A stretch of 62,392 bases of DNA, counting the filler. It is 7 parts of 7 records of this genome, joined end to end, with 100 filler letters (N's around TTAATTAATTAA, not from the genome) between each part and the next. Parts side by side here need not be neighbours in the genome. Positions count along the whole stretch, not along the records: positions 1 to 17,894 come from SRR31147125_11927; 6 more parts are not named here. One strand, given 5' to 3'. Shown here in pieces: positions 2,515-17,894 of the stretch. Below the pieces are notes generated by a model, which was given only the letters and a program-made list of their open reading frames with translations, searched no databases and was not told the DNA's origin. Made by a program: the position numbers and the translations under genes. Position 1 is the stretch's first letter. Each line of letters begins with the position of its first letter.

Positions 2515-2796
2515 TTAATTGTTTATGAATATGGAACTCTTCTTTCTTAGATTCGAGATTTAGAGAAAAGGGCAACGTTCCTCACTTTTTATAAGGGAGT
2601 AACTTCCTATATGATAGACTTTGTCAGAAAGGTCCAAGAGTATTTTTAGATCATATATAATAGCGTTCGAGTGAGGCTTGGCAATCCAGAACTTGAAGAG
2701 GGTCCTCTGGGCGCAAAATAATTGTTGGCTCTGCCGAAAAACATCAATGAGATCCAAAGTTGAGGCTTCTAAATAAAATTAGTTGATTGAAAGAGT

Positions 2797-2829
2797 AGCG
2801 TCTACTTTAAATATATCAAAGTAGACGCT
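2797..2829. terminator. Intrinsic terminator hairpin between convergent genes
   Basis: AGCGTCTACTTT / AAAGTAGACGCT 12-bp stem. Confidence 0.7.
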
Positions 2830-2849
2830 GTCTCTTTGTTTGGGGGAGT

Positions 2850-4196
2850 TTATTGTAGAATTAGAGAACAACCACCTGATGCTGGGGGAGCTGTTGTGGT
2901 TGTGCTATCGTCTTCTGTGTCGCTTTCTTCAGATTCACTCTCATCTTCTTCGCTATCATCCTCAGTTTCACTATCTTCTTCTGAAGGGGAGTCTTCTGTT
3001 TCTTCAAGGCATGAGCTGTCACATCCATCTCCATCATCGAGGTTGCCATCATCGCATTCCTCACTAATATCCGTCTGAACAACTCCATCGCTGCAATATG
3101 CTTCAATAGCACCAAGGTCACAGGTTGAGACTCTATCTTGACCAATCTGATCTGTAGGAACATTTGCAGTGCAATAGGAGGCTTCTCCACCATCGATGGC
3201 GGGACTTCCGCTTTGTAATATATATCTTCCAAGACCAAAGTCTGTAGATCCGGAGAGTGCTGAAAGAAGAGGGTCCACTGCTGTTGCATCATCTTCCGTT
3301 GCAGTACATCCCACAAAGTCTTCAAGGATGTTATATCCATTTGATTCATTAACTGCGCCAATACAGTCATTGCCAGTAGTCGTGGCTGTATTCCCAGCTA
3401 TGATTGTATTTGTAATATTGAGTTCGCCCGTTGTATATATGCCTCCACCCTCATCGGCATTATTATCAGTGATAGTCGCGTTGACAAGATTGATTGTCGA
3501 GGCCTCGTTTCCAAATATTGCTCCCCCTAACTTTAAGTCTGATGAGTTGCCAGCTATTGTGGTGCTTTTAGCAGAAAAGGTTCCTGAGGTGTAGATGCTG
3601 CCTCCTGAAAGATTTCCTATGTTATTATAGATAAAGCTATTTACTACTCTAGCTGAGGAAGAGTTGTGAATTGCGCCTCCTAGACTGGCTTCACAATCCC
3701 TTATTGTAACTCCTGATACTGTTAGTGTGCCGCTGTTAGCGATTGCTCCACCGAAATTGGCGCCTGATATAAGTCCATTTGCTAGTGTGCAGTCTTCTAG
3801 GATTAGGAGTGACGAGGTGTTATACAATAATCTGAATTCATCTATTCCTTCACTATCATCTCTAGTTAGCGTTGAGTTATTACATTTTATTTGGAGGGCA
3901 TCGCTAATTATGGGTAGGGCTGATTTACTTTCATAGATTTCAGTAAAAGTATAGGTCTCATCATCTTGAAGTTCAATTACGTCTGCTTCAATATCAGAAC
4001 CTGCTGTACATGCGTCAACGGCTAGATTGGTATTTGCCGCTTCGATTGCCTCTGCTAAAGTGCAATTGCCATTGTCTTCAAGAGGACTCTCTTGCGTTGT
4101 TGAATCGACAGTGATTGTGGCTGCAAAGCTAAAAGTGTAAAAAGTTGTGATAGCTAAAACTAAAGTGATGTTGATTAGATTTTTAAATGTTCTCAT
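2850..4196 (-). CDS. Secreted CSLREA / choice-of-anchor Q beta-helix protein with a Myxococcus-type Cys-rich repeat and C-terminal GGCSL motif
   Basis: Signal peptide; GNCTLAEAIEAAN; GGAI repeats; GSPAIDGG...CDLGAIE; CSDGVV...EECDDGN..DGDGCDSSC; acidic linker. Confidence 0.85.
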   Translation of the reverse strand: MRTFKNLINITLVLAITTFYTFSFAATITVDSTTQESPLEDNGNCTLAEAIEAANTNLAVDACTAGSDIEADVIELQDDETYTFTEIYESKSALPIISDALQIKCNNSTLTRDDSEGIDEFRLLYNTSSLLILEDCTLANGLISGANFGGAIANSGTLTVSGVTIRDCEASLGGAIHNSSSARVVNSFIYNNIGNLSGGSIYTSGTFSAKSTTIAGNSSDLKLGGAIFGNEASTINLVNATITDNNADEGGGIYTTGELNITNTIIAGNTATTTGNDCIGAVNESNGYNILEDFVGCTATEDDATAVDPLLSALSGSTDFGLGRYILQSGSPAIDGGEASYCTANVPTDQIGQDRVSTCDLGAIEAYCSDGVVQTDISEECDDGNLDDGDGCDSSCLEETEDSPSEEDSETEDDSEEDESESEESDTEDDSTTTTAPPASGGCSLILQ

Positions 4197-4230
4197 GGAT
4201 ATCTCCTCTTCAATATATAAATTATATATA

Positions 4231-4258
4231 ATTATCGACGTCTGTGGTAGCAGTGTTG
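4231..4258 (-). promoter_or_regulatory. Sigma28-like promoter CAAC-N17-CGATAAT
   Basis: Reverse complement reads CAAC actgctaccacagacgt CGATAAT upstream of the ATG at 4196. Confidence 0.65.
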
Positions 4259-4278
4259 CGGTTTAAAGGCGATTATCT

Positions 4279-4296
4279 GTATTCGTTTATGAATAC
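4279..4296. promoter_or_regulatory. Palindromic operator copy 2
   Basis: GTATTC gtttat GAATAC. Confidence 0.8.
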
Positions 4297-4359
4297 GGAA
4301 AACTTCAGTACTGATATGATTTTGTTGCATCTGCTATAAGTAGAATTTATGTATACTAA

Positions 4360-5502
4360 ATGACTTTTTGCAACGATGTGAGAGACGATTCTAAAGCATA
4401 TAGACTTTGCGAGTTCATTCGCAAAAAATATAATTATAAAAAGAATGACTTTGATAAGTGCCTTTTACGAACAGTTCATAAGGATAAAGAACGAGCCGTT
4501 AATGTCTGTACCGATCCTGGAGCTGAAATTACGCCTGAGCAGGTTAGGGAAACAGCTTTTTCATTGATCGAAAAAGAACTGTTTGATCAAAAAGATAAAT
4601 TGCGGAGAGGAAGAGAGTTTTGTTCACCTCTTTTGAGGTTCTTTGAAGATGTGGAAGATTTAAAAGTTCCTTGGATTACCAAAGATAAATATCTTTTTCT
4701 GCATTCTGAGTTGGCTTGTGAAAAAGCTAAGGAAATCATATCTGATGGCGGTGTATTGAATGGTTCTTCTGGATATAAAAAAATGTTAGCTCGTAAGGCT
4801 TGGGAGTATATCAGTAAACCAAAAGAAGATGGTGGTTTGGGGCTAGAGTTTGATCCTTTTCATAATTCACCACAGAAGAATTATGATGAGGTTGTTGAAA
4901 AAGGATTTGGGACGTGTCATGAGATAACCCTTATGGTTATGCTTTTTAGGCAGTGGGGCTTGGATGCACATCCTGTAGATATTTATACGAACAATTCTGG
5001 ACAATATATTGATCATATGGGGATTGGTGTCAAAATAACTAGAGACCAGGTTATGATTGTTGATCCTCAATTGGGTATTGAAATTGTTAGTCAGAGTAAG
5101 ACGAGTTTAAAAAAATGGACCTTTGTCTCTATGTCAGATTTTATGGCTGATCACTTAAATAATAGAGCCAATCTGAATGCTAAGTATTGGCCTGATGACG
5201 AAAAATATTCATTTATGAGAAAGAATTACGGTCAGGCATTGCTCTATGGTGCAAGTAACTATCTTGTATTGTATTGTGCCGCAAATTTTGAAGATGAGTA
5301 TAATAACAATCTAGAAGTTGCTGTAAGGCACGCGTTGTCGTCTATGAGGGCCAATCCTTATTATCCAAACACCTATTTACTATTGATTGATCTTTACGAA
5401 AAACTCGGTGTTTATAATTCGACAACGTCCTATTGCGATCGGTATAAGGCTTTAACTGGAAATCAACACTGTTCAACAGAGGTATTGTACTCCACTTACT
5501 GA
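4360..5502 (+). CDS. Transglutaminase-like (Cys-His-Asp) domain protein with C-terminal TPR-like helices
   Basis: GTCHE, DHMG and IVDP motifs; ANPYYPNTYLLLIDLYEKLG is TPR-like. Confidence 0.6.
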   Translation: MTFCNDVRDDSKAYRLCEFIRKKYNYKKNDFDKCLLRTVHKDKERAVNVCTDPGAEITPEQVRETAFSLIEKELFDQKDKLRRGREFCSPLLRFFEDVEDLKVPWITKDKYLFLHSELACEKAKEIISDGGVLNGSSGYKKMLARKAWEYISKPKEDGGLGLEFDPFHNSPQKNYDEVVEKGFGTCHEITLMVMLFRQWGLDAHPVDIYTNNSGQYIDHMGIGVKITRDQVMIVDPQLGIEIVSQSKTSLKKWTFVSMSDFMADHLNNRANLNAKYWPDDEKYSFMRKNYGQALLYGASNYLVLYCAANFEDEYNNNLEVAVRHALSSMRANPYYPNTYLLLIDLYEKLGVYNSTTSYCDRYKALTGNQHCSTEVLYSTY

Positions 5503-5504
5503 AC

Positions 5505-6788
5505 CTACATAGCTATTGCAACAACCTCTATCGAAGTGTCTTCTTGTTTTTGAAGTTCCTTCTCAATTCTAGCTATGGTTTTTGGAGGGTAGGCCAAGTA
5601 GTAAGTCTTTTTTGATGTTTTGTATTTAACTAGCGACCATCCTTTTTGTCCTCGATCAACCCAGCTTTCTATATATTCAAGACCACTGTTTTCGTCCTTA
5701 AAGGTTGATACGGGCTTGTACTGAAAATCCCCCAATTTTAGTGTGATATTCTGTTTAATTGCACTGGCCCTGGTTGGTTTTCTTCGTCTAGTCTTGCGTG
5801 AGCTTCTTGTGATTGCAGTAGAGTAGATGGTTTCTCTTCCAGAAGGTAAAACTGGTTTCAGTTCTGGCGATTTTAACGCAGTGTCTAGTGTAAATAATGG
5901 TGAGATAGGTTTCGGATTCTCCATGGAAGCTGATATCTCTCTAAATGAAGGGACTCTTGGTCTGTCCTTCATTTTATTCTTTGGTTGTATAACTGTTTTG
6001 GCCAACTCAGCCCTACCTCTGTCGTCTAGAGTGAGGGATGGGGTGCCAATAGTAAAAGTTGGGAGGTCTCCCGTCATGGCAGCGAGATGTTTTCTAACAG
6101 TCTCTGTAGCTTCTGGATCATTTTTTAGAAATATAGGTTTTGGATTCTTTGAAACTGCTGCCATCCAGGCCTCTTCTTGTCTTGCTTCAATGTCTTTTAC
6201 GTGATTTGTAACTCTAGCTCTTTTTCTGGGTTTTAAGGTGGCCACTTCGGATGTTTTTGCCACATCTGTAGGGCTAGATGGCTCGGCGTGTAAAGGTATT
6301 TTGATGTTTGGTGTTTCTTTTGTCAATTCTAAGTCTTTAGCTGGAGTATCGATAGGTTTGGTTCTAGAGGGATCACTGTTTGCAGATGTTGGGAGGTCTC
6401 CCGTCATCGCAGCGACATGTTTCCTTATAGTTTCTGCCGCTTCTGTATCATTTTTTAGAAAGTTAGGTTTTGCTGAAGCTCTTTCCAACCACTGCTCTTT
6501 AATGTTTTCTACATGATTTGTAACTTTAGCTCTCTTTCTAGCTTTCAAGGTTACTACTTCGGATGCTTTTGCTATGTCTGAAGAGCTTAATAGCCCAGGG
6601 GCCTCTGAAGGCCTTTTTTTGATGGGCATTTTCCCTAAGAAAGAAAGGTCTCTGGCTGGATCGTCGATAAATTTGCTTTTATATGTAATCTCTTTTCCAT
6701 CAATACCCTTAGATGTTTTCTTTGCAGGTGGGGTAGGCAGAGTTCTCTCTTCGATTACCCTTATAGTCTTTTTTGTCACTTTCTTCAT
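5505..6788 (-). CDS. Basic hypothetical protein with an internal ~65-70 aa duplication
   Basis: Likely start MKKVTKK at 6788 (RBS GGAGG at 6793-6797); two copies of SEV.TLK.RKRA.VTNHV...FLKND.EA.ET.RKH.AAMTGDLPT. Confidence 0.7.
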   Translation of the reverse strand: MKKVTKKTIRVIEERTLPTPPAKKTSKGIDGKEITYKSKFIDDPARDLSFLGKMPIKKRPSEAPGLLSSSDIAKASEVVTLKARKRAKVTNHVENIKEQWLERASAKPNFLKNDTEAAETIRKHVAAMTGDLPTSANSDPSRTKPIDTPAKDLELTKETPNIKIPLHAEPSSPTDVAKTSEVATLKPRKRARVTNHVKDIEARQEEAWMAAVSKNPKPIFLKNDPEATETVRKHLAAMTGDLPTFTIGTPSLTLDDRGRAELAKTVIQPKNKMKDRPRVPSFREISASMENPKPISPLFTLDTALKSPELKPVLPSGRETIYSTAITRSSRKTRRRKPTRASAIKQNITLKLGDFQYKPVSTFKDENSGLEYIESWVDRGQKGWSLVKYKTSKKTYYLAYPPKTIARIEKELQKQEDTSIEVVAIAM

Positions 6789-6828
6789 ACAACCTCCAAT
6801 TGTTTCCCTTCGTAAACTCTTCAATATA

Positions 6829-6856
6829 ATTATCGGTTCACTTCTTAGAATTGTTG
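6829..6856 (-). promoter_or_regulatory. Sigma28-like promoter CAAC-N17-CGATAAT
   Basis: Reverse complement reads CAAC aattctaagaagtgaac CGATAAT. Confidence 0.65.
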
Positions 6857-6885
6857 TTTTGTTTGTTGGCTGACAAAGAAAATGT

Positions 6886-6903
6886 GTATTCATTTGCGAA
6901 TAC
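6886..6903. promoter_or_regulatory. Palindromic operator copy 3, shared by divergent promoters
   Basis: GTATTC atttgc GAATAC, 29 bp from the CAAC box on each side. Confidence 0.8.
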
Positions 6904-6932
6904 GGATAATGGGTGTTTGCCGATTATTCTGA

Positions 6933-6958
6933 CAACACTTCTTTTCTCTTTGCGATAT
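6933..6958 (+). promoter_or_regulatory. Sigma28-like promoter CAAC-N16-CGATAT
   Basis: Upstream of RBS AGGAGG (6975) and ATG at 6986. Confidence 0.55.
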
Positions 6959-6985
6959 ATCTTGTGAAGGGAAAAGGAGGTATCT

Positions 6986-8772
6986 ATGTCAGTGTTAGGA
7001 AAAAGTATAATTGGTCTTAACTTAAATCAAATTATGTTCAGGGCTCCCAAATCGAAAGACAAACCTGTAAAAGCTAAGGGCGAGAATGATATGTTCTCTA
7101 GTGTTGGTAGTGAGATTACTAAGGCTCTTAATAAGGTGGTTCAGAATAGTGGTTCGAAAGTAGGCAGCGATGATAAAGATCGAAGTGTTGCTGTGTCGAG
7201 ATTTATCAGAGAAATTCTATCCATGAATCATAAGGGACAGCTTCATATTAAGAGAGAACTCGGTTTTTCTGATAATCATAAGTTGACTGCAAAAGAAATT
7301 TACCATTGGGTGATTGAAAAGGGCGGATCAGGTTTTATTAAAGGTGTTATGGAAACTGGTCGAGGAAGGCTTCGTGCTTGCCAACTAAGGTTCAGGAATA
7401 ACTATTCTGCGCATAGAGAAGAGGGTAGACGCTTGATAGCAGACTCTTTAATGTCAGAACGAGTTGAAAAGTATTCGGGCTTGAAACAAAAATATTCTGA
7501 AAGTAAATCTTTGGACGTTTTAGTGGAGTATGCAAATTCGAAGAAAGAACTCCAGGACATCTTCTATACAAAAATTCTTCCTTATCCAACCTATGAGAAG
7601 GCGGCCAGTGCCGGTATTTTTAGTTCCTATATTACAACTCATAACATAATTCTTACAGGCCTTTATGATGTTGAGCTTGCTGGCGTTCAATTTGTAAAAC
7701 CGTTTAAGGGCGCTCAGAGGGCATTGGTGAATAATTCTGCTGCTGGAACAGGTAGGAGTGGGTTGACATGGAAAATAGATGGAGAATACCTAAAGGTTAC
7801 AGCTGGAAAGAGGGAATATTCATACAAAATAAATCGTGATAACTCCTTAACCTATACCACTGATAGGGGAAAGAAGATTATTTATACACCGCAGGGTAAG
7901 CGGATCAATGGAAAAGGTACGAGTAAGTATATTCCAAAGCTTGGTCTTAACTGGAAGTATAAACCAGTTCCTTCAGAAAAACGTGTTGCCATGGTCAAGC
8001 TGTCTGATGTCGAAAGGCAATCTGTAAAGAGAGTTGTTTCTAATCGTCTTGATAGAGATGTTGTTGTTGGAAAATATGATAATGCGACAGTTTGGGTGAC
8101 GCCAAAGTATGGAGTTAGTAGATATCTGATTGGTAAAGTAACTAAAGGCGAGAGGGGAAGATATTTTATTACACTTGGTAAAAAACTAGATGGGAAAAAA
8201 TATCCTTTGATTCAAGGGCTTCAGGTGGCGAAGGGCTATCTTGGAGAATATGAACGTTCAAGAAAAGCTGTAGTCGATGCTAAGAATAGAAAGAAAGAAG
8301 TTGCTAAGAGTCGATATGAAAAAATGACAGATCTCTTGAACCAATATAACAGCTTGTTGTCTTCCATAAAGTCTGACCATCAATTGCTTGTTAATGGAAG
8401 CGAAACTGATTCTACAAAGCGTTTTCCCTCGATGGGATTACTGCATTCAATTCAAAAAAGGAATTAGGCGACGAGAGTGTCTTTAATGCAAGTAGTAGAG
8501 GGTTGTTAGAGCAATATAAAACCAGGCTAGATAACTTGATAGGTCAACTTGATGGAGATCAGGGATTAATTGAATATATGAGTTCTGATAGTGGCCTAGA
8601 GGTTGTGTCCAGTCTCTATTATAATCTAACCTATTCCGAGACGTCTGATCAGGTGAGAAAAAAGAGAGATGAAAAAGTCTCAAAACTAAAGACAACCCTT
8701 AGAACTGCAAACAGTCTAAGAAGAGAAATGGCGTCACTACTAAACTCAAGCATAGCATCTCAGAAGGAATGA
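6986..8772 (+). CDS. Large basic hypothetical protein, probably one gene split by a 1-nt loss in an A6 run (8454-8459)
   Basis: Adding one A joins ORF 6986-8467 to 8503-8772 with no intervening stop (IQKKELGDESVFNASSRGLLEQY...). Confidence 0.6.
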
Positions 8773-9656
8773 AAAAGGAAGGCGTAAAAATGTCGATAGG
8801 AATACTGAACTCATTAACATCAAAATTTAATAAGATTATTAAATCACCTTGGATGCCTAATAGAGATAGTGTTAAAGAAGGTGAAATAGTGAGGCGTATT
8901 AACTTTGGTATATTTGGGGAAAAGCATCATGCGAAATTACTTTATTTGGGCTTAGGCTCAGAGAATAATTTTAGTAGAGGTATTAGTGGGTTGACTTTAG
9001 CTCTGCTTCGTAATCACTCTGATAGAAATTTGAATGGTCTAAGTGTTAGCGGAATAATGAATAGTTCTGAGGGAGCTATGAAGGGCGTTCAAATATCTAT
9101 TATGCATAATGAAGCTTGTCTGGGAAGTATGAGTGGTCTCCAGTTGGGAGGAAATAATATCTCTTATAGGAGTATGAGGGGAGTTCAAATAGCATTATCG
9201 GGTAATGCAACTGGCAGAAATATGAGCGGTGTTCAGTTGGGAGGTTTATGTAATAGAGCTTTTTTAGGTGAAATGAGCGGTGTTCAAGGTTCATTACTAA
9301 ATTATTCCTATTTTGATATGACTGGTGTGCAATCGGCATTTATAAATTTATCCGAAAGAGGCGACATAAAAGGTTTCCAGGTAGGCAATGTAAATGCAGC
9401 ATTGGACGGTGATCTCGACGGTTTTCAGGTTGGTGTAATCAACTATGCAGGGAGAGATATGAAGAGGGTTAAGCTGGGGCTTTTAAATATTTGGCACGGT
9501 GGAAAATGCTTTTGCCCTGGTGCAAATATTGTCTGTATCCCAACAGACTGGTCGTCAAACGAATCTGCAATGAAGAGCGCTGTTGAGCATGTGGCTATCA
9601 GTAGAAACAGAACATCGCCGATGAAATCGATTGCGTACTTAGGCTCATCGCTTTAA
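8769..9656 (+). CDS. G(V/L/F)Q-repeat beta-solenoid protein (LA_2272-like repeats)
   Basis: Tandem ~16-17 aa repeats MxGVQxxxxNxA; start may be 8790. Confidence 0.7.
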   Translation: MKKEGVKMSIGILNSLTSKFNKIIKSPWMPNRDSVKEGEIVRRINFGIFGEKHHAKLLYLGLGSENNFSRGISGLTLALLRNHSDRNLNGLSVSGIMNSSEGAMKGVQISIMHNEACLGSMSGLQLGGNNISYRSMRGVQIALSGNATGRNMSGVQLGGLCNRAFLGEMSGVQGSLLNYSYFDMTGVQSAFINLSERGDIKGFQVGNVNAALDGDLDGFQVGVINYAGRDMKRVKLGLLNIWHGGKCFCPGANIVCIPTDWSSNESAMKSAVEHVAISRNRTSPMKSIAYLGSSL

Positions 9657-9705
9657 AAACTCACAGATTAAAAATGTACTTTGTTTAGTACGTTGAGAGG
9701 GCAAG

Positions 9706-10413
9706 ATGAAGATTACATCATTAAATGTTTCGAAAAAGGAAGATAAATGTGTTGCAATTGGTGAGGCTAAAACATTCAACAGTGAAGAGGTTTTAAAGAT
9801 AGCAAGAAATAATGGTGCTCCAGATGTTTTAGAAGATTGCGACCTCTATGAAATGAAAGTGGCTGATAAAAGAGGAAGTGTAGGAGAGATTGCCATGAAG
9901 TCATCTGAAATTAAATCTCTATTTTATAAGAATTGTAAGCCCTTGCAAGGTGATGTTTTGACAAAGAGATTAGAGTTCTTTAGAAAATATCCAACGATGA
10001 TGGATTTAATAACGCTAGCTACCCAGAATGAGGGCAACCCAATTAGGTTTCTTGAGGAATATTTCTCTTTTTTGACTGAAATTCATGAGGAATATAGTGT
10101 TCCCTTTGTGATGACTGAATTTAATATGTTTGCAAATATAGTAGAGGAATATGTATCTCAGGGCGCTGAGATATTGCTATGGTCATGTTCGACTGATAAT
10201 TTCCCTGATGTTTTTATGAAGAGTTTGTTTTTGGGCATGATGGATAAATATCTACTCTCTTCTAGCAGTAAGGATAAAGAGCGTACAGCATCACTAATAG
10301 GTTCTTGCCTAAGCCGGGCTTCAAACTCACGTATGAAGATGTTTAGAAAGTTTATTACTCAGCCCAAATACGTTCCAGTGTTAATGAGATTGTTCAAAGA
10401 TATTCATAGATAG
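9706..10413 (+). CDS. Hypothetical protein
   Basis: 235-aa ORF with GAGAGG RBS. Confidence 0.6.
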   Translation: MKITSLNVSKKEDKCVAIGEAKTFNSEEVLKIARNNGAPDVLEDCDLYEMKVADKRGSVGEIAMKSSEIKSLFYKNCKPLQGDVLTKRLEFFRKYPTMMDLITLATQNEGNPIRFLEEYFSFLTEIHEEYSVPFVMTEFNMFANIVEEYVSQGAEILLWSCSTDNFPDVFMKSLFLGMMDKYLLSSSSKDKERTASLIGSCLSRASNSRMKMFRKFITQPKYVPVLMRLFKDIHR

Positions 10414-10518
10414 AAGGGCTTCATCCCAAAACAGAACAAGTAAACTACTGGTGAGCTAGCGTGTTGACACTTTTGAGTCTTTTGTATGATATCATAATTT
10501 CATTAAATGGGATTGTCT

Positions 10519-10648
10519 TTTTAACCTTGAGTTTTGGGATTGAAGCTTAGCTCTTAATTGTTGCAATAACTGGATGAGCTGGTTAGGTTAAGGAAAACAA
10601 GGGGTAAATATGAATTTATCGAAACTAATTTTCTTCTCCAATAATTAA
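10519..10648 (+). repeat. Degenerate copy of the leader and first codons of the TraB/GumN gene (15996-16093)
   Basis: aattgttgcaataa..ggatg.gctggttag.tt.aggaaa.caa...aaatATGAATTTATCGA is shared; this copy ends in a 12-aa ORF. Confidence 0.7.
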
Positions 10649-10653
10649 AGGTT

Positions 10654-11127
10654 TTACAGAATCAGATCAAGTGTTAGGGGATTCTGTGTTGACCCTTCAA
10701 AACTCATATCCATTCTTAAAAGAGAGGCTTCAAGCAGCATGGCTTCAGAGGGTGTGACCTGAGCCTCAGCAAAACCATAAAGAGCGCCGATCACAACGTT
10801 AGCTTTGTGCGGGTCAATAGTCTTAGTGAAAGAAGCATCTGTGCCTATTATATGCGTTCCTATGTGGCAAGGTTTATACGTGATCGAACCCTCTGTAATG
10901 TATATTTTAGGGTTTTGATGTTTTACAAATCTAACTTTTCCTGTATTATCCAAAAAGTGTGTGAGAGTTATTGCACAATCCTTACTAGTCGAATATGTAT
11001 CAATGCCTATTTGGCCATCACACGTTGATCCAATAAAGAATTCTCGCCCGACATGCCTTTCTTCTATTATGTCTTTGCCCACAAAACTGTTTATCGCATT
11101 CTTAATTTTCTTTGTTATCTGTATCAT
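10654..11127 (-). CDS. Hypothetical protein
   Basis: 157-aa ORF with AAGGAAG RBS. Confidence 0.55.
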   Translation of the reverse strand: MIQITKKIKNAINSFVGKDIIEERHVGREFFIGSTCDGQIGIDTYSTSKDCAITLTHFLDNTGKVRFVKHQNPKIYITEGSITYKPCHIGTHIIGTDASFTKTIDPHKANVVIGALYGFAEAQVTPSEAMLLEASLLRMDMSFEGSTQNPLTLDLIL

Positions 11128-11152
11128 TTAGACTTCCTTTGATTTGTTAATG

Positions 11153-11671
11153 TTATTGCTTTGCTTCGTTGCTTTTCATGTAGCTACGGATCTCTCGAGT
11201 TATTGATTTAGGGAGCGACTGAAAAATGTATTTTTCTTCAAAGTTGGATAACTGTTTTTCAATGAAAAGAATATTACCAGCCTTATCTGTGCTGCTAATG
11301 GTATATCTAAGGGTTTTGAGCTGAGTGCCCTCATTAATTTCAATAGAAAAAATTATTTCTCCCTCCATGCTTGGTTTTAAGGTTCTTAGCAAGCTCATAA
11401 CATGACTTTTTGTAATAGGATATTTGTTAAGCAGAGTGTCTGTTCCGTTGTCTATTCTAATCGAGCTTTGCATAGGGTTGTGAGATAAAAATAATTTGTT
11501 TCGAACATCAATAATGCATGAAAGTTGCTTCTGGGGGATTTGTTTGTTAGTTCCTCTAATAAAAAGTTCTCCCTTATCAACGGATCCGTTGTTGTTACTG
11601 TCTCTCCAAGCTAGCTTGTCTAGGTTTACTTTGGTTTTGTTGCAGACTATTACTGGACTTTTATTTATCAC
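11153..11671 (-). CDS. Hypothetical protein with an EF-hand-like loop
   Basis: GTG start with AGGAGG RBS; DSNNNGSVDKGE. Confidence 0.6.
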   Translation of the reverse strand: MINKSPVIVCNKTKVNLDKLAWRDSNNNGSVDKGELFIRGTNKQIPQKQLSCIIDVRNKLFLSHNPMQSSIRIDNGTDTLLNKYPITKSHVMSLLRTLKPSMEGEIIFSIEINEGTQLKTLRYTISSTDKAGNILFIEKQLSNFEEKYIFQSLPKSITREIRSYMKSNEAKQ

Positions 11672-11741
11672 GGTATTCCTCCTTAAAAAAGGTGCTTAGA
11701 TTTTTCGGCGACACAGAGTGATCGTCGTTTATTATATTTAT

Positions 11742-11768
11742 TTTCTCGACGACCTTAAGGATTAGTTG
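11742..11768 (-). promoter_or_regulatory. Sigma28-like promoter variant CAAC-N16-CGAGAA
   Basis: Reverse complement reads CAAC taatccttaaggtcgt CGAGAAA. Confidence 0.5.
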
Positions 11769-11797
11769 CTCTAAAACTTAAAAGATAAAGATTATTC

Positions 11798-11815
11798 GTA
11801 TTCGTTCTAGAATAC
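11798..11815. promoter_or_regulatory. Palindromic operator copy 4
   Basis: GTATTC gttcta GAATAC. Confidence 0.8.
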
Positions 11816-11884
11816 AGTTGTTCATCGCTTATGATGTTTTATGCTATAAAGATTAAATAGTAGTTGTTTTGCTAAATTGATGCA

Positions 11885-12337
11885 CTACTTGCGACAGCAA
11901 TCAGGGGTTCCAGCACATTCAGGAATTTCGGGTTGTTCGCTTTCGCTGTTTTCATTATCAATATCTGCTTCAGATATTGGAGAGTTTTTACTTTTGCAGT
12001 AGCTCTCGAAATTTAGACAGTCATTATATAGCGAATTGATAGTTTCAGAGAGATTAATGGATGAGCCATCAGGCAGTCCGTCACCCTCATCAATTACTTC
12101 GTCCAAAGATACTTCTACATTTTTCAGAGCTGCATAACATTCATTCTGACATCTGCACGATATGCGATCGAAGCCGATTAATCCCTCAAAATATTTCACC
12201 CATTCACCATAGCAAAACATCTGAGTGGCTTTTGTGACATCATAAGCTACTCTGGACTCTCTAGCACCAAGGTTCTTTGTGAGGAGAGCAGTTCCAAGAG
12301 CTATAACGACAAACAAAATAACAGTTAACTTCTTCAT
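11885..12337 (-). CDS. Small secreted Cys-rich protein
   Basis: Signal peptide, multiple Cys residues, GGAGG RBS. Confidence 0.7.
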   Translation of the reverse strand: MKKLTVILFVVIALGTALLTKNLGARESRVAYDVTKATQMFCYGEWVKYFEGLIGFDRISCRCQNECYAALKNVEVSLDEVIDEGDGLPDGSSINLSETINSLYNDCLNFESYCKSKNSPISEADIDNENSESEQPEIPECAGTPDCCRK

Positions 12338-12366
12338 GTTTCACCTCCGTTAATATTTATATTGCT

Positions 12367-12394
12367 ATTATCGTCCTCATGTAAGTTGAAGTTG
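12367..12394 (-). promoter_or_regulatory. Sigma28-like promoter CAAC-N17-CGATAAT
   Basis: Reverse complement reads CAAC ttcaacttacatgagga CGATAAT. Confidence 0.65.
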
Positions 12395-12413
12395 TCCAAT
12401 AGGTTGATAAACT

Positions 12414-12431
12414 GTATTCGAGTTAGAATAC
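12414..12431. promoter_or_regulatory. Palindromic operator copy 5
   Basis: GTATTC gagtta GAATAC. Confidence 0.8.
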
Positions 12432-12665
12432 ACGCAATCTAGAATGTCTGATTTGTTTCTATTTGATTTCTATGAAATTCAGATAGAGAGTCGGAAAGGC
12501 TAAGTCTCATTGTGTGCTAGTGTCCTCAATTTTGGGAATTCTCTAATGATTACGTCTGTATTCAGAAAGCTAGCTATATTATGCGGTAAGGCCCTTTCTT
12601 TATCCGTCTATATATTTCTTAACATCTTGTATTTATTATGCTATTATATATTCAAGTGAATAGGG

Positions 12666-12687
12666 GTGTATTCAAACTTGAATACAC
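12666..12687. promoter_or_regulatory. Palindromic operator copy 6, upstream of the TIGR02147 gene
   Basis: gtGTATTC aaactt GAATACac. Confidence 0.8.
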
Positions 12688-12704
12688 TTAGTCTGTTTCG
12701 GGCA

Positions 12705-12732
12705 CAACTTTGAATACACTTCAGCCGATAAT
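12705..12732 (+). promoter_or_regulatory. Sigma28-like promoter with a GAATAC half-site inside its spacer
   Basis: CAAC tttGAATACacttcagc CGATAAT; contains GCCGATAA. Confidence 0.7.
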
Positions 12733-12768
12733 TATGGCAAGAGTGTATAAATGTAAGCGAGGTTGATT

Positions 12769-13608
12769 ATGATATTAAAAGAGATAAATCTTTTCGAATT
12801 TACGTCCTACAGAGAGTTTCTAAGTGAATACTACAGAGTTAAGAAAGAGCTTTCTCCATATTTTTCACATCGTGTCTTTGTAAGGATGTGTGGTTTTAGT
12901 TCTCCAAATTTCCTAAAGCTTGTTATGGAAGGGCAGAGAAATTTAGGAAAGAAGGCTTTGGAAAAATTGATGACATCTTTGAAGTTCAATAAGATGGAAC
13001 GGGAATATTTCACAGCTCTTGTTAGTTTTGAGCATTCTGATTCAATGGATGAGAAGGGTGTTCATATGACAACCATTGCAAGGCTACGTCATAGGACAGG
13101 GGTCAAGACTATTGAAACTGATAGATATGAATATCTTTCCCATTGGCTCAATGTTGCTGTTAGAGAACTGATCTCTTTAGATGACTTTGAAGAAGATGTC
13201 TCTTGGGTGAATGGGAAACTTGATATCTCTTTAACAGAGAAAAAATTTACAGATATTATTGATAAACTCATTAAATTAAAACTTGTTAGACGTGGAAAGA
13301 ACGGAAAGCTACATCAAAAAGCGTCTACGTTAGTATGTTCTCCGGAGATATATTCTGTAGCCGTAAATAGCTATCATAATGAAATGATTGCGAAGGCTCA
13401 GGAGGCGATAGAGAAAAGCAGTAAAAATAGAGATTTATCGGCTCTCACCTTCAGCACGGATTCCGAGACATATGAGAGAATTCGTGGTATAATAAAAAAA
13501 TGTCGTGAGGAAATTCATCATGTTGCTGATGAATCGAAGAACAAGGAAGCTGTTTACCAGGTGAATTTCCAGTTCTTTAATCTTTCGGAGGTTAGTTGTG
13601 AAAATTAA
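12769..13608 (+). CDS. TIGR02147 family protein (N-terminal HTH plus DUF4423)
   Basis: YREFL..YY..KK...PYFSHR.F....GFSSPNFLKLVMEGQRNL; W...AVREL; RDLSALT; VYQVNFQFF; ~280 aa. Confidence 0.88.
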   Translation: MILKEINLFEFTSYREFLSEYYRVKKELSPYFSHRVFVRMCGFSSPNFLKLVMEGQRNLGKKALEKLMTSLKFNKMEREYFTALVSFEHSDSMDEKGVHMTTIARLRHRTGVKTIETDRYEYLSHWLNVAVRELISLDDFEEDVSWVNGKLDISLTEKKFTDIIDKLIKLKLVRRGKNGKLHQKASTLVCSPEIYSVAVNSYHNEMIAKAQEAIEKSSKNRDLSALTFSTDSETYERIRGIIKKCREEIHHVADESKNKEAVYQVNFQFFNLSEVSCEN

Positions 13609-14176
13609 AAAATCTCTTCTTTTTGTTGTAATGGCCATCGTGTTTCTTGGCTTCGGATGCTCAGGTAGCGGAACAGAGGTTCTAAATCCTTCTGATGTTA
13701 ATGATACGGAACAGCTAACAGAATTTGAAAGCGAGCCTTATAAATTTTCGTTTTCATTATCTGGTTCATGGGATGAGACAGAGTATTCTGAAACAAATCC
13801 AGTTCCAGGGGATATATATAATGATCCGGTTGGAACTGCAAACCCTATTGCCGATTTGTCACAGGGAGATTCTGAAATCTTTGTATATGAAGACAATCTT
13901 TCAGAGGGTGAGAGTTTGACAGCTTACGTTGCTGCAAGAATTGGTGCAGAGGATATTACAGATACAACTACTAGAGATAATCTTGAAATAACAGTAGTGG
14001 ATTATGATGTTCCACCCGCCGGTTCAATTTTTGCTATGAGCATTTTTACTACAAATGGTGATAAGGTTATAACAACGCGCTTGGAATCAAATGAGGATAC
14101 CTTGATTGCAAGGATGACTGTGGTTGGTCAGTTTATTGAAATTGTTGATACGATTTCTATTCCTGATGAAGAGTGA
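13598..14176 (+). CDS. Lipoprotein overlapping the end of the TIGR02147 gene
   Basis: GTG start with GGAGG RBS; lipobox GFGC followed by SGSGTEVLNP. Confidence 0.8.
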   Translation: MKIKKSLLFVVMAIVFLGFGCSGSGTEVLNPSDVNDTEQLTEFESEPYKFSFSLSGSWDETEYSETNPVPGDIYNDPVGTANPIADLSQGDSEIFVYEDNLSEGESLTAYVAARIGAEDITDTTTRDNLEITVVDYDVPPAGSIFAMSIFTTNGDKVITTRLESNEDTLIARMTVVGQFIEIVDTISIPDEE

Positions 14177-14276
14177 TTGTTAGGGCAATGTGAGGCTTCT
14201 CTAAAGTTGGACGTGAATCCGAAGTAATGTTGTCCAAATTGTTGTTTTTCCCCCTAAAATATGTTTTAATCCCTCC

Positions 14277-15239
14277 ATGCTTTCAACAATATATCTTGTC
14301 GGTGGGTTGGCCCTCGCTATCTGGGGAGCCAATATTCTTGTCAATGCCGCTTCAACTATGGCCAAGCGGTTCAATGTTTCCGATTTGGTAATTGGTGCGA
14401 CAATTGTTGCATTTGGCACATCCTGTCCTGAATTAGCTGTTAATGTCTTCTCAGCTATTCATGGTCATACAGATTTGGCAATGGGTAATATTCTTGGAAG
14501 TAACATTTTTAACATCCTTTTTATCTTAGGTGTCGTTGGAATCGTTCATGCTCTTCCTGTCAGACGCTGGACGTTTAACAAAGATATTCCTATGTGTGTC
14601 TTGGCAGCGATTGTTCTTTTTGTTTGTAGTAATGAGATTCTCTTTGACGGTCTTAGCTTTTCAAAATTAATTCCGAGTGATGGTATTGTCTTTTTCGCAT
14701 TCTTTGCAATCTTTCTTTCATATACTTTGAGTGGGGGAGATAAAAATGATATTGATGCTCCACCAATAGAGGAGACTGAAGTAAAAGATTATTCAACTGG
14801 GCTTGCTGTTTTTTTAACTCTTGTTGGTTTGGCCATGCTTCTAGTGGGTGGAGAATTTATTGTTAATGGTGCAAAGAATATTGCGGGACTCCTTGGAATA
14901 TCTGATCGTGCTGTTGGTATCTTAATTGTTGGGCCAGGGACATCAGTTCCTGAATTGTTAGCTTCGCTAGTTGCAGCACTTAAGAGGAAAACTGGGATGG
15001 CGGTTGGAAATATCGTTGGCTCAAATATATTTAATGTCTTTTTTACATTAGGTCTTACATCAATAATAAGACCAATCCCGATGACACTAGATATGAATCT
15101 AACAGCGATCGTTCATATAGCCGCAAGCATTTTACTTTTTCTGTTTGCAATGGGCCACCGTCGAATGCTTGGGAAGGTGAAAGGGCTGATCTTTATAGCT
15201 GCGTATGGTACATATATTACATACGTAATAATGACATGA
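14277..15239 (+). CDS. yrbG: Calcium/sodium antiporter (YrbG family)
   Basis: Two alpha repeats GTSCPE / GTSVPE and GNI(L/V)GSNIFN. Confidence 0.93.
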   Translation: MLSTIYLVGGLALAIWGANILVNAASTMAKRFNVSDLVIGATIVAFGTSCPELAVNVFSAIHGHTDLAMGNILGSNIFNILFILGVVGIVHALPVRRWTFNKDIPMCVLAAIVLFVCSNEILFDGLSFSKLIPSDGIVFFAFFAIFLSYTLSGGDKNDIDAPPIEETEVKDYSTGLAVFLTLVGLAMLLVGGEFIVNGAKNIAGLLGISDRAVGILIVGPGTSVPELLASLVAALKRKTGMAVGNIVGSNIFNVFFTLGLTSIIRPIPMTLDMNLTAIVHIAASILLFLFAMGHRRMLGKVKGLIFIAAYGTYITYVIMT

Positions 15240-15886
15240 TAGGAGAGGTTATGAGTAGACCAATGACTGATTCTGCCGGCTTAGGCTGGCAGTCCTATAG
15301 ACTTCAACAGCTCACTGATGGTGTGTTTGCTATTGCTATGACACTTTTGGTGCTTAGCATAACATTAGAAAAGCCTGCAGCTGGGTCTGTGAAGACTATG
15401 CTGCCTATTAAGCTGATGGATTTGTGGCCAGATCTGCTTCACTACTTTCAAAGTTTTATTATTTTGGCTGCTTTTTGGACTAAGCATCATCAGCAGTATC
15501 ACCTAATCAAGGAAATAGATAGACCAATAACTTGGCTAAACATTTTGTCACTTGTCTTCATTTGTTTGATTCCTTTTTCAACAACTCTTGTTGGTGACTA
15601 TGGCGATCAGCTTGTTGCTGTCATTGTCTTTGAAGTTAATATGCTGATGGCAGGCCTGATTTTCTACTGGCAGTGGGCTTATGCCACAAGAAAGCATCAC
15701 CTTGTGGACAAGGATCTTGATAAGCACGTGATTAAGGCCTACAAATTTGACAATCTTGTTATTCCTATAATTTCTGTAGTTGCAATACTGATTTCTCTTT
15801 ATAATCCAAGAGTGGGGACTCTACCATACCTGATCAGCCCATGCTTTTTTCTGGTTAGTAAGAAATGGGAGCGGAAGAATAGATAA
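15236..15886 (+). CDS. TMEM175-family potassium channel (DUF1211)
   Basis: RL..LTDGVFAIAMTLLVL; FW..HH; LIPFST. Confidence 0.9.
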   Translation: MIGEVMSRPMTDSAGLGWQSYRLQQLTDGVFAIAMTLLVLSITLEKPAAGSVKTMLPIKLMDLWPDLLHYFQSFIILAAFWTKHHQQYHLIKEIDRPITWLNILSLVFICLIPFSTTLVGDYGDQLVAVIVFEVNMLMAGLIFYWQWAYATRKHHLVDKDLDKHVIKAYKFDNLVIPIISVVAILISLYNPRVGTLPYLISPCFFLVSKKWERKNR

Positions 15887-16080
15887 TAGATTCGTCGTTG
15901 ATTGTGGTCCATAGCGCTCAGTGTCCCTAATAAAGTTATCTTCATCTTTTCTTTTGCGAGATTAGTGAGATGAGCTATTAATTCCTATATTTGTTTTTTA
16001 ACTGTGAGTTTAAAGCTTCACTTTAAATTGTTGCAATAATGGGATGGGCTGGTTAGCTTGAGGAAAGCAAAGGAACAAAT

Positions 16081-16992
16081 ATGAATTTATCGATACAAAA
16101 TAAAAATATAAAGAGAAGAGTTGCTATAGTGCTAGTGTTTATAACTGTTTTGATGTTGTTAATGTCTAGTAGTGGTGTTTGTTTTGCTGGCTCTAATTCC
16201 CTGTGGGAGATAAAGTCGAAAAACAGTTCGGTATTTCTCCTCGGATCTATTCATCTTTTAAACAAAGATTCTTATCCTCTTGATCAGTCGATTGAAAATG
16301 CATATCAGAAGAGTCAGGTTGTTATGTTTGAGACAGATCTTGCTAAAATGAGCAGCCCTCGTGTTAAAAAACGTATTGTTGATGAGGGTTTTCTGCCATC
16401 TAACCAAACTCTAAGTAGTGTACTTTCAAAAAACACTTATCGATCGCTAACAAAGTTGGTATTGCAGTCGGGCTTGTCGATGGCCTCTTTTTCGCGACTC
16501 AAACCATGGCTGTGTGCTATGACATTAACCCTAATGGAAGAGGAGAAGTTGGGGTTCTTACCCCAATATGGTATTGATAACTATTTTTATGAAAAAGCCA
16601 GAGTGGATAGGAAAAGAATCCTAGCTTTAGAGTCTGTTGATGATCAGCTCAGTCTTTTTTCCGGCTTAGATAGTGTAGAGCAAGAAAGAATGTTAAATCA
16701 AACTATATTGGAAATGCAGGTCATTAAAAAAAATGTCTCCAAAATGATTTCTTATTGGAAGACTGGAAAGAGTCAGAGGTTTGCGGCTTTAATTCAAGAG
16801 GGTTTTAAGGGCCAGCCTGAAATGTATAATAAATTCATTATAGATAGAAATAATGAATGGTTACCAATTATTGTTGCTTTAGTTGAAAAAAATGAAAGTG
16901 CCCTAGTTGTTGTTGGTAATGCTCACTTGGTAGGTGACGGTAGTGTTATTGATCTCTTAAAGAAGAGAGGGTATGACGTTATTCAGAAGTAG
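16081..16992 (+). CDS. TraB/GumN family secreted protein
   Basis: LWEI...FLLGSIH; LKPW; GID; LES..DQ; DRN..W; VVVGNAHLVG. Confidence 0.92.
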   Translation: MNLSIQNKNIKRRVAIVLVFITVLMLLMSSSGVCFAGSNSLWEIKSKNSSVFLLGSIHLLNKDSYPLDQSIENAYQKSQVVMFETDLAKMSSPRVKKRIVDEGFLPSNQTLSSVLSKNTYRSLTKLVLQSGLSMASFSRLKPWLCAMTLTLMEEEKLGFLPQYGIDNYFYEKARVDRKRILALESVDDQLSLFSGLDSVEQERMLNQTILEMQVIKKNVSKMISYWKTGKSQRFAALIQEGFKGQPEMYNKFIIDRNNEWLPIIVALVEKNESALVVVGNAHLVGDGSVIDLLKKRGYDVIQK

Positions 16993-17022
16993 TGTATCTG
17001 TAGTTGTCGAGTAGAGGGCAGG

Positions 17023-17063
17023 GTTAAGTACGTGTGCGAATTCTGGAGACACCAAACTTAATT
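17023..17063. repeat. REP-like inverted element (left of def)
   Basis: GTTAAGTACGTGT is the exact reverse complement of 17802-17814; followed by GAATTC and GGAGACACCAAACTTAATT. Confidence 0.55.
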
Positions 17064-17201
17064 CAAGTATAATAACTAAAGATTCCCCCGAACTTCCCCG
17101 AACTTCGTCTAATCTCGAATATGTAATCAATGGGAATTCTGTTAACTAATATCCAAAAAAAATGGCTTGATAAGTTGCTTTTAGAATTATATCCAGAATT
17201 T

Positions 17202-17771
17202 ATGAAGAATATATTAGAAATTGGGAATCCCGTTCTAAGGATGCAGTCTAAGGAAGTTCCAGTTAGTGATATTAAGAAGATAGAAACAACATCCTTCGTG
17301 AGCAATTTGGTGGAGACTATGAGAGCTGCAAGCGGTGCCGGCCTTGCAGCGTCGCAAATAGGAACCTTATTAAGAATCTTTGCAATGGAAATTGATCATA
17401 ATAAACGCTATCCATATAAACCCAACATTCCGCTGACTGTTTGTATTAATCCGACGCTAGAATTCCTAAGTGACAAGACATACGAAAGTTACGAAGGTTG
17501 TCTCTCTGTGCCAAATTTAAGAGGTGTTGTAAAAAGATATCTAGAAATACGACTTTCAGGATATGATGTTAATGGAGATTGCGTATCGAATGTGTATAAG
17601 GGAATTACAGCTGGGACGGTTCAACATGAATATGATCATTTAAATGGAATCTTGTTTATAGACAAAGTTGATGATCCCAAAACCTTGTGTACTTGGAGCG
17701 AGTTTCATAAATATTACGAAGAATCTTTTATTAAGGAAGTTCATAGGATTAAACAAAAATATGGTAGTTAA
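17202..17771 (+). CDS. def: Peptide deformylase
   Basis: GAGLAASQ, EGCLS and QHEYDHLNG motifs; likely start MKNILEIGNPVL. Confidence 0.95.
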   Translation: MKNILEIGNPVLRMQSKEVPVSDIKKIETTSFVSNLVETMRAASGAGLAASQIGTLLRIFAMEIDHNKRYPYKPNIPLTVCINPTLEFLSDKTYESYEGCLSVPNLRGVVKRYLEIRLSGYDVNGDCVSNVYKGITAGTVQHEYDHLNGILFIDKVDDPKTLCTWSEFHKYYEESFIKEVHRIKQKYGS

Positions 17772-17791
17772 CTGATTTTTTCTTTCCGCTC

Positions 17792-17862
17792 GAGTCGGGG
17801 GACACGTACTTAACTTCACTATATAATTAGGTATGTGTCCCCCGACTCCAAGACTTGACCCG
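17792..17862. repeat. REP-like hairpin (right of def)
   Basis: GAGTCGGGGGACAC / GTGTCCCCCGACTC 14-bp perfect stem extended by imperfect pairing; followed by CAAGACTTGACCC. Confidence 0.7.
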
Positions 17863-17894
17863 TTAGAAAGGTTTAATGTAAATGATTTTGAAGT

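Follow-up and report, generated by a model that had tools for sequence, protein, structure and literature searches.

A TIGR02147/DUF4423 protein as the probable binder of a recurrent GTATTC-N6-GAATAC dyad and putative activator of its own lipoprotein-encoding operon

The DNA examined in this study, hereafter called the window (62,392 nucleotides (nt) in total), consists of seven contigs joined by runs of N. Contig A (1..17894) contains a gene for a TIGR02147/DUF4423 protein, its overlapping lipoprotein gene, and all of the dyad sequences that are the subject of this report (Table 1). The contigs are separated by paired 44-nt N runs, and their GC content ranges between 0.28 and 0.47; it is possible that not all of them belong to a single organism. 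A survey of sequencing runs listed no RNA run containing this DNA; it listed a DNA run that may be the source, and a second run of that sample had next to none of the words. The putative regulator scored 212 bits against the NCBIfam model TIGR02147 (Fsuc_second; cut-off 50) over residues 6-274 of 279, and 127.8 bits against Pfam DUF4423 (PF14394; cut-off 30) over residues 113-272, or 129.5 bits when the C-terminal part was searched alone. A GAGG sequence is located 7-10 nt upstream of its ATG at 12769; an alternative TTG is present at 12763, and homologues share the 12769 start position. The lipoprotein gene overlaps the regulator gene by 11 nt, and the N-terminus of its product reads MKIKKSLLFVVMAIVFLGFG-C21-SGS-G25TEVLNP31. 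In the initial annotation, these two genes were described together with a palindrome at 12668 and half-sites at 12712 and 12558, and all of these elements were indeed found where they had been placed. The regulator had also been regarded as the only gene of the helix-turn-helix (HTH) type in contig A. This view is supported by our scan of the open reading frames (ORFs) of this contig (17 against Pfam, 13 of these also against NCBIfam), in which none of the other ORFs matched a DNA-binding family and 9 of the 17 matched no family.

The exact sequence GTATTC-N6-GAATAC occurs six times in the window, where 0.16 copies would be expected, and none of 100 shuffled sequences reached this number. The six copies start at 1335, 4279, 6886, 11798, 12414 and 12668, all within the first 12.7 kb of contig A, and all of them are intergenic if the ORF 5505..6893 is taken to start at the ATG at 6788. 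The listed start of this minus-strand ORF, at 6893, falls inside the 6886 dyad and upstream of the predicted promoter of the ORF itself; the in-frame ATG at 6788, located behind a GGAGG, is the likely true start and would result in a protein of 427 amino acids (aa). Behind the six dyads, seven promoter-like units were recognised with the consensus cTGTATTC-N6-GAATACAg, a gap, cgCAACtt, N14 and cCGATAAT, after which come a ribosome-binding site and the start codon. In the direction of 4360..5502, the 4279 dyad had no recognisable promoter of this type. We compared these seven units with five others, from the loci L002, L003, L004, L118 and L131. In the resulting 12 units, either 13-15 or 23-25 nt (four and three of the window units, respectively) separate the second base flanking the palindrome from the first base of the 9-nt -35 box. 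If the palindrome end and the xxAACxx window are taken as reference points instead, the gap of the window units amounts to 17-19 or 28 nt. The two spacing classes are thus separated by ~10 nt, which is about one helical turn. Between the centre of the dyad and the G of GATAAT there are 49.5-51.5 or 59.5-60.5 nt, and between this centre and the inferred transcription start ~62 or 72 nt. The -10 word (C)CGATA(A) was found in 10 of the 12 units, the remaining two being TCGAGAAA and CTGATAAT, with an N16 spacing from CAAC. Within the window, this promoter type is essentially restricted to positions behind dyads. Most of the proteins encoded by the predicted targets, which are the genes listed in Table 1 and the regulator-lipoprotein operon, have no family match, and the predicted regulon mainly consists of secreted proteins, lipoproteins or orphan proteins.

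Table 1. Coordinates of the regulator-lipoprotein cassette and of the predicted operators and promoters in contig A.
Feature	Position	Strand	Remarks
Regulator gene (TIGR02147/DUF4423)	12769..13608	+	279 aa; assigned by family scores, AF2 model and fold matches
Coupled lipoprotein gene	13598..14176	+	192 aa; GTG start with GGAGG upstream
Lipoprotein parts	lipobox Cys21 13658-13660; box G25-T-E-V-L-N-P31 13670-13690	+	signal peptide residues 1-20; PsbP/DcrB-like mature domain ~50-190
Main operator of the regulator's own promoter, GTATTC-N6-GAATAC, extended (T)GTATTC-N6-GAATAC(A)	12668..12685	.	101 nt before ATG
Auxiliary half-site GTATTC	12558..12563	+	110 nt upstream of main palindrome
Half-site GAATAC inside promoter spacer	12712..12717	+	offset +44
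-35-like box GCACAACTT (consensus cgCAACtt)	12702..12710	+	fixed distance in 12 units
-10-like box CCGATAAT	12725..12732	+	matches the -10 and N16 spacing of B. bacteriovorus FliA-type attack-phase promoters as given in PMC3627812
Predicted operator with minus-strand promoter (-35 window from 12395, -10 12373-12368)	12414..12431	.	gene 11885..12337, secreted Cys-rich protein
Predicted operator of the 28-nt class with minus-strand promoter (-35 from 11769, -10 CGAGAA)	11798..11815	.	gene 11153..11671, probably also 10654..11127
Predicted operator common to two divergent 28-nt-class promoters	6886..6903	.	genes 5505..6788 and 6986..8467
Predicted minus promoter of the 6886 dyad	-35 from 6857, -10 6835-6830	-	gene 5505..6788
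Predicted plus promoter of the 6886 dyad	-35 from 6932, -10 CGATAT 6953-6958	+	gene 6986..8467
Predicted operator with minus-strand promoter (-35 from 4259, -10 4237-4231)	4279..4296	.	gene 2850..4196, secreted beta-helix-type protein
Predicted operator with plus-strand promoter (-35 from 1370, -10 1391-1398)	1335..1352	.	lipoprotein gene 1420..2514

We then examined whether the dyad accompanies the TIGR02147 family beyond the window, using 80 loci with family genes from one-per-species genomes, 78 of which entered the scan for an upstream dyad. The nearest homologues of the regulator share just 50-58% identity with it. In L003 and L004, the orthologous genes are preceded by the exact N6 dyad along with the promoter type known from the window, and in L002 the dyad is found ahead of the operon; the genome G055 also carries an exact dyad upstream of the orthologous gene or operon, L001 has an N5 form, and in L046 an exact N6 dyad directly precedes a Myxococcota gene whose product is 35% identical. 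When dyads were counted de novo in 96 upstream regions, GTATTC-N5 (9), GTGTTC-N5 (6), GTATTC-N6 (4) and an N4 form (4) ranked at or near the top. A motif search upstream of TIGR02147 homologues, as had been suggested in the initial annotation, covered 250 nt per gene and allowed a single mismatch. It revealed GT[AG]TTC-N4-7-GAA[TC]AC in front of 37 of the 78 family genes (22 perfect); of 3009 further windows of this length, taken from the same loci as a control, 29 contained a site (11 perfect). The family dyads cluster at -85..-135 in DNA of 37-73% GC, and in other lineages a -10-like element is found ~45 nt past the operator.

The number of copies per genome points in the same direction. The exact N6 dyad was found once per assembly in G002, G003, G004 and G005 (2.1-6.1 Mb), in each case at a family gene or operon, and G055 is a fifth genome with a single exact N6 dyad at a family gene. 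Likewise, the exact N5 dyad is a single-copy sequence at a family gene in G063, G065 and G066 (3.8-8.6 Mb). G001-G005 encode 1-7 family paralogs each, and only one paralog per genome has the N6 dyad. Three extra exact N5 sites were detected in G064 and G067, and all three are located 55-107 nt upstream of genes for lipoproteins without the box described below. These sites (L156 in G067:C19, and L157 and L158 in G064:C181 and G064:C194) match those of the window in geometry and in the kind of gene targeted, and they therefore suggest that the family regulons of other lineages reach further envelope genes. Dyads with one mismatch in G001-G005 occurred at about the frequency of the reversed control and none of the 12 that were fetched (L085-L096) had an adjoining promoter, so that they were regarded as background. 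A metagenome scan for the dyad-plus-promoter pattern, in a collection without the window's own units, returned 15 loci. Of these, just L132, identical in sequence to the L004 unit, and possibly L131 appear genuine, and the others are located in coding sequence. The L131 unit (2001-2075; 28-nt class, with dyad, GCAACTT and CCGATAA) is located 94 nt before an ORF of 230 aa. There was no TIGR02147 gene in the 4 kb examined at this locus, which may represent a regulon member in a relative.

It had been reasoned in the initial annotation that the regulator gene would be a mere target if the motif were kept in genomes that lack the family. Among 61 relatives of G004, the family was found in 49, with up to 18 copies, and an exact N6 dyad in 9 (3 genomes in the reversed control). 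Four of these nine dyads are located at orthologous genes with a promoter, and five have neither the gene nor a promoter nearby. The latter include two hits in genomes without a family match, where ~0.14 hits per genome are expected by chance. The palindrome was thus at chance level in family-less genomes and had no adjoining promoter there, so that nothing indicates an existence of the dyad independent of the family.

A structural model of the regulator was generated with AF2. This model has a mean predicted local distance difference test (pLDDT) value of 82.3, with block means of 94-96 over residues 11-90, and it comprises a part resembling XRE-type HTH folds (residues 12-95), a winged-helix-like part (115-190) and subsequent C-terminal helices. 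In Foldseek matches over ~75 residues of the region ~12-95, the best probabilities (0.89-0.98, with E-values of 0.36-0.97) were obtained for the restriction-modification controller (C) proteins C.BclI, C.AhdI and C.Esp1396I, and for NHTF. VIA-align superposed residues 12-95 on 3pxp (Z 8.1, root-mean-square deviation (rmsd) 3.1, 81 aligned residues) and on HigA (Z 7.3-7.9), which are scores in the common range. The same common range applies to the superposition of residues 115-190 on the winged helices of PadR, ArsR and MecI proteins (Z 7-8; 8ioi with Z 8.0, rmsd 2.3 and 66 aligned residues), and 4g6q superposes on residues 115-272 with Z 8.5. As in PadR, a C-terminal helical part follows the winged helix. 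Unlike in the PadR, ArsR and MecI proteins, however, this winged helix sits behind a separate HTH domain, and Pfam gave no PadR or ArsR match for the regulator, so that the PadR likeness exists at the level of the fold alone. No TPR family of Pfam was found in the regulator, and no export signal. A Foldseek search with the whole regulator gave no match at E-values of 0.001 or less, a sequence search of solved structures (PDB, profile A1) returned noise with E-values of at least 0.55, and the best score for residues 105-279 in the ESM Atlas was 0.83, which is below lead level.

Every one of the 32 rows in which the site is of the GTATTC type has Ser-Pro-Asn at the start of helix 3 of the HTH domain, and the five Polyangiaceae-type loci with GTGTTC-N5-GAACAC have Ser-Ser-Asn there. 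Two independent paralogs, G002_C1_208k and G004_C90, also combine Ser-Ser-Asn with perfect GTGTTC dyads, and G003_C9 has a hybrid site. The helix-3 residue, Pro (Pro46 in the regulator) or Ser, thus tracks base 3 of the half-site, and this covariation makes it a candidate specificity determinant. The five GTGTTC loci with Ser-Ser-Asn (L039, L052, L070, L072 and L078) are among 10 loci that have no downstream box lipoprotein, and this subgroup may have lost or changed its partner. At L107 (G005:C165), a paralog with Ser-Thr-Asn is preceded at ~30 nt by the perfect dyad TGGATAC-N6-GTATCCA, which may define a third specificity class.

Judged from these comparisons, the TIGR02147 protein very probably binds the palindrome and controls its own operon, as had been proposed in the initial annotation. 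It should be noted, however, that several observations weigh against this view or limit it. Of the 78 family loci, 41 had no site in the scan of the upstream 250 nt, even with one mismatch allowed. Residues 1-110 match none of the Pfam families at E-values up to 10, and the fold scores are middling (Z ~8). In addition, the Ser-Ser-Asn proteins L005, L006, G004_C136 and G003_C171 lack a detected GTGTTC site, L017 and L038 have hybrid sites, and the five GTGTTC loci may go back to a single evolutionary event. The absence of a detectable site at 41 family genes would also suit a dyad that is bound by another factor encoded elsewhere, with the TIGR02147 operon being merely one of its targets. The window indeed covers just part of a genome, and one of the nine contig-A ORFs without a family match could encode an unrecognised DNA-binding protein. 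Nevertheless, such a factor would have to follow the TIGR02147 family through loci of metagenome-assembled genomes (MAGs) labelled as Bdellovibrionales/Oligoflexia, Myxococcota, Fibrobacterota and Desulfobacterales types, to leave its sole exact dyad at a family gene in 8 assemblies, and to have its N6 form at one of up to 7 paralogs per genome. Moreover, the base preference of the half-site covaries with a residue of the TIGR02147 protein, and the stray hits in family-less relatives of G004 fit chance. An all-against-all BLAST of 1806 neighbouring ORFs did not reveal a third conserved gene, for instance one for a membrane transducer, common to the 80 loci; one family of ~646 aa recurs near family genes in 15 loci only. 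We therefore consider it very unlikely that another factor is the binder.

The palindromes might also act at the RNA level, as hairpins in termination, processing or stability, or they might represent a mobile or REP-like repeat rather than protein-binding DNA. Their predicted folds of -6.3 to -13.5 kcal/mol (z -2.3 to -6) would suit a hairpin, a terminator scan flags 12664-12689, and the 11798 site is located downstream of the gene 11885..12337. However, none of the six dyads is followed by a T-tract, and the arms are identical in 12 units from at least 6 genomes with variable spacers and no compensatory changes. The lack of T-tracts and the invariance of the arms make an RNA hairpin unlikely. 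In addition, the dyads lie upstream of the predicted promoters and would not be transcribed from them, and no Rfam family was found in the window. Altogether, the chance that the palindromes are anything of this kind appears minimal.

If the regulator binds the dyad, the next question is what it does there. The initial annotation assumed activation from the upstream site. This is made plausible by the location of the dyad upstream of a conserved -35/-10 pair and by the helix-phased spacing classes, while the sign of regulation itself was inferred. Activation is favoured because the dyad is located upstream of the core promoter both here and in other lineages, and because the spacing classes keep the helical phase. 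In class I activation by the cyclic AMP receptor protein CRP, sites are located near -61.5 and -71.5. The arrangement in the window resembles this by a dyad of 6-nt arms and a 6-nt spacer upstream of the -35 box in two classes ~10 nt apart. It differs from CRP in that the protein belongs to an unrelated family without a cyclic-nucleotide domain, the promoter is of another type than sigma-70, and the transcription start is a predicted one. On these sequence-based grounds, activation of transcription from the dyad by the TIGR02147 protein falls just on the probable side.

The promoter has features of its own. PMC3627812 gives TTAAG-N16-CCGATA as the consensus of the FliA (sigma-28)-type attack-phase promoters of Bdellovibrio bacteriovorus. 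The window units agree with it in their -10 word, (C)CGATA(A), and in a spacing of 16 nt, and the relatives are Bdellovibrionota-like MAGs; in contrast to this consensus, the -35 box of the units is cgCAACtt instead of TTAAG, and every unit has an upstream dyad. The canonical TAA[AG]-N15-17-CCGATA did not occur in the window. AAC-N17-CGA also resembles promoters of the extracytoplasmic function (ECF) type. FliA-like and ECF-type sigma factors are therefore both candidates for recognition of this promoter. The conservation of the -35 box implies that a dedicated sigma factor may fully serve the promoter, in which case the dyad protein would be a modulator.

A conserved -35 box also means that the promoter need not be weak, and this would be compatible with a TIGR02147 protein that binds the dyad but mainly represses or autorepresses. 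Either a CAAC/CGATAA promoter that is constitutive with a dedicated sigma factor could be dampened by looping between the dyad and the auxiliary half-sites, or the dyad could be a roadblock for transcription that starts upstream. At 12619-12647, shortly before the regulator dyad, TTAACA-17-TATTAT forms a sigma-70-like pair that has a TG. This pair is the sole basis of the latter layout and would turn the dyad into a downstream operator. Repression would also suit L046, where the dyad precedes the start codon by just ~43 nt, and most characterised regulators of the XRE and PadR types are repressors. On the other hand, a generic sigma-70 scan of the window gave 6 matches versus 6.7 expected from shuffles, and thus no excess, and the distance between the sigma-70-like pair or other AT-rich -10-like words and the dyad is variable in orthologues. 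The distance to the downstream promoter, in contrast, is fixed, with two classes offset by one helical turn, a phasing that is typical of activators contacting RNA polymerase. Repression as the main mode of action is consequently rather unlikely in our view.

The half-sites bear on the same question. A GTATTC in the same orientation is present 66-110 nt upstream of the dyad in all six close own-gene promoters (window, L001, L002, L003, L004 and L046) and mostly missing from the other window targets. Of 37 own-promoters across the family, 18 have an extra exact half-site within 120 nt upstream (2.8 expected, p ~4e-11), and 10 have one in the stretch that separates the operator from the gene (2.1 expected, p ~3e-5). 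This enrichment on both sides marks both half-sites as recurrent features, and it would suit looping by a repressor as well. The upstream half-site at 12558 is better conserved than the one in the spacer, and the position of the downstream half-site is variable, being +44 in the window and +49 in L004. The idea that the protein limits itself at the spacer site, which was also part of the initial annotation, thus gains from the frequency of downstream half-sites, whereas their position is not fixed. A comparable logic is known from C proteins, whose dyad operators directly precede the promoter of the C gene itself, and which activate first and repress at higher occupancy. The regulator likewise has a strong dyad with weaker extra half-sites directly upstream of its own gene, conserved in orthologues. 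Unlike the small, single-domain C proteins, it has 279 residues and two domains, its partner gene encodes a lipoprotein, and its dyad is centred ~62 or 72 nt from the inferred start instead of abutting the -35 box. Restriction or methylase genes were not recognised among the contig-A ORFs.

Taken together, we consider it rather probable that the TIGR02147 protein both binds the dyad and activates its own operon plus six further units in contig A. According to this reading, the protein would be a transcription factor composed of an N-terminal XRE-like HTH, a PadR/ArsR-like winged helix and C-terminal helices. It would bind (T)GTATTC-N6-GAATAC(A), probably as a dimer and via the N-terminal HTH. 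From this position upstream of the unusual promoter cgCAACtt-N14-cCGATAAT, which combines a sigma-28-type -10 and spacing with a different -35, the bound protein would most likely activate in the style of a class I activator. It would thereby drive its own bicistronic operon, encoding the regulator and the translationally coupled lipoprotein, as well as the six further transcription units, and the weaker half-sites upstream of the dyad and inside the promoter would probably tune autoregulation. The lipoprotein, a PsbP/DcrB-like domain on a tether predicted to be disordered, would be an obligatory cargo of the cassette.

The pairing of family genes with a particular kind of lipoprotein gene had been mentioned in the initial annotation, and it held up. 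A coupled lipoprotein gene was present at 69 of 79 evaluable loci (3 of them loose regex matches), compared with a background of 29 of 1384 ORFs, and in 36 loci it overlaps the regulator gene by 4 nt. The products share a signal peptide and a Cys that is followed within 0-10 residues by a seven-residue box, [GS]-T-[EDG]-[VTI]-G-N-P. In 52 aligned N-termini, C21 and G25 are invariant, T26, N30 and P31 are conserved to at least 90%, and nothing else is conserved. In the window partner, residues 1-20 comprise a basic start and a hydrophobic core before G-F-G-C21, read from the sequence as a signal peptide with a lipobox. The mature parts of the partners fall into 22 unrelated BLAST clusters with lengths of 77-671 residues. 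The window partner is homologous to the partners of L001, L002, L005 and L006, whereas L003 and L004 combine the orthologous regulator and the same dyad with a different partner of ~480 residues. The model of the window partner has a pLDDT of 77.5, and the box region is predicted to be disordered (pLDDT below 50). Its mature domain resembles the PsbP/Mog1/DcrB fold: Foldseek matched it to CyanoP with an E-value of 4.6e-5 (TM 0.54-0.60), to six PsbP/CyanoP chains in all (E 4.6e-5 to 9.8e-4, TM 0.43-0.61), and to DcrB with an E-value of 0.021; the score against Pfam PsbP_2 was 17.5 bits, under the cut-off of 27. A word-based homologue search with the lipoprotein gave no match. A profile search with the partner domain found 97 representatives among 1.84 billion proteins, and the box was present in 47 of the 50 that were fetched.

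In G001-G005, a DNA pattern for G-T-[DE]-x-x-N-P gave 34 hits, of which 11 directly follow family genes and 2 are tRNA-like; none of the other 21 is located behind a recognisable signal peptide and lipobox. Under this strict pattern, the lipoprotein N-terminal box looked exclusive to neighbours of family genes in the five genomes. Several of the hits are repeats of the GTDPxNPDSDGDG type in large secreted proteins (L136, L138, L140, L147 and L151; G002, G004 and G005), which we take to resemble calcium-binding repeats. The lipoprotein box shares G-T-D/E-x-x-N-P with these repeats, and this may or may not be meaningful.

Most likely, the Cys-x(0-10)-G-T-E/D-x-G-N-P box is a handling signal of the envelope, for sorting, anchoring or processing, and not a ligand of the cytoplasmic regulator. 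A plain cargo model does not, however, explain the exclusive pairing with box lipoproteins, and this exclusivity would be compatible with some feedback from the partner to the regulator. None of the present results supports the sensing role that the initial annotation gave to the lipoprotein or its N-terminal peptide. A feedback switch coupled to export would have either the pre-lipoprotein before its export or a lipopeptide released from the conserved Cys-GTExGNP end bind the DUF4423 part of the regulator. Export to the envelope or processing of the partner would then set the activity of a positively autoregulated promoter of an alternative sigma factor. The logic of this switch would be that of FlgM and sigma-28, or of lipoprotein-derived pheromones, built from an unrelated protein pair. 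RRNPP regulators such as PrgX use lipoprotein-derived peptide pheromones, and cCF10 originates from the signal peptide of CcfA. As in the PrgX systems, an XRE-type HTH regulator is linked here to a lipoprotein precursor, and PrgX chains head the Foldseek list, but with an E-value of 0.18 and a TM of 0.15 that are not significant. Unlike for PrgX, no TPR-type peptide-binding domain was recognised in the regulator, and the conserved box is part of the mature lipoprotein instead of the signal peptide. All in all, we regard the feedback switch as improbable; if true, it would toggle interchangeable envelope-protein cassettes cell by cell in predatory and gliding bacteria.

The secreted product of the minus-strand gene 2850..4196 combines a choice-of-anchor Q domain with a cysteine-rich acidic repeat of the myxobacterial type, and its acidic Ser/Glu/Asp-rich tail ends in GGCSLILQ, possibly a C-terminal sorting signal. 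The protein encoded at 8769-9656 contains LA_2272-type surface repeats (NF047436, 37.4 bits versus a cut-off of 25), and its gene may be co-transcribed with 6986..8467.

The papers that we searched contained no function for TIGR02147/DUF4423 and no mention of TIGR02147. The sole mention of DUF4423 that was found is an entry in a proteomics table of PMC12546842 for Bd3700, which was raised during growth in prey. The same search returned nothing on box peptides and nothing relevant on Bd3700, on half-sites in connection with Bdellovibrio, or on a Fibrobacter paralogous family together with a lipoprotein and an HTH protein. An autoregulated HTH factor with a dyad operator is of a known kind; what is new is the undescribed, obligatory and tagged lipoprotein partner. 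With the present findings, the large TIGR02147/DUF4423 family gains a first testable function, along with predictions of an operator (GT[AG]TTC-N4-6-GAA[TC]AC), a specificity residue, an autoregulatory architecture, an envelope or secreted regulon, and a lipoprotein partner with a seven-residue box. Should this box turn out to serve as a tag for sorting or signalling, a new rule of lipoprotein handling in these phyla would emerge.

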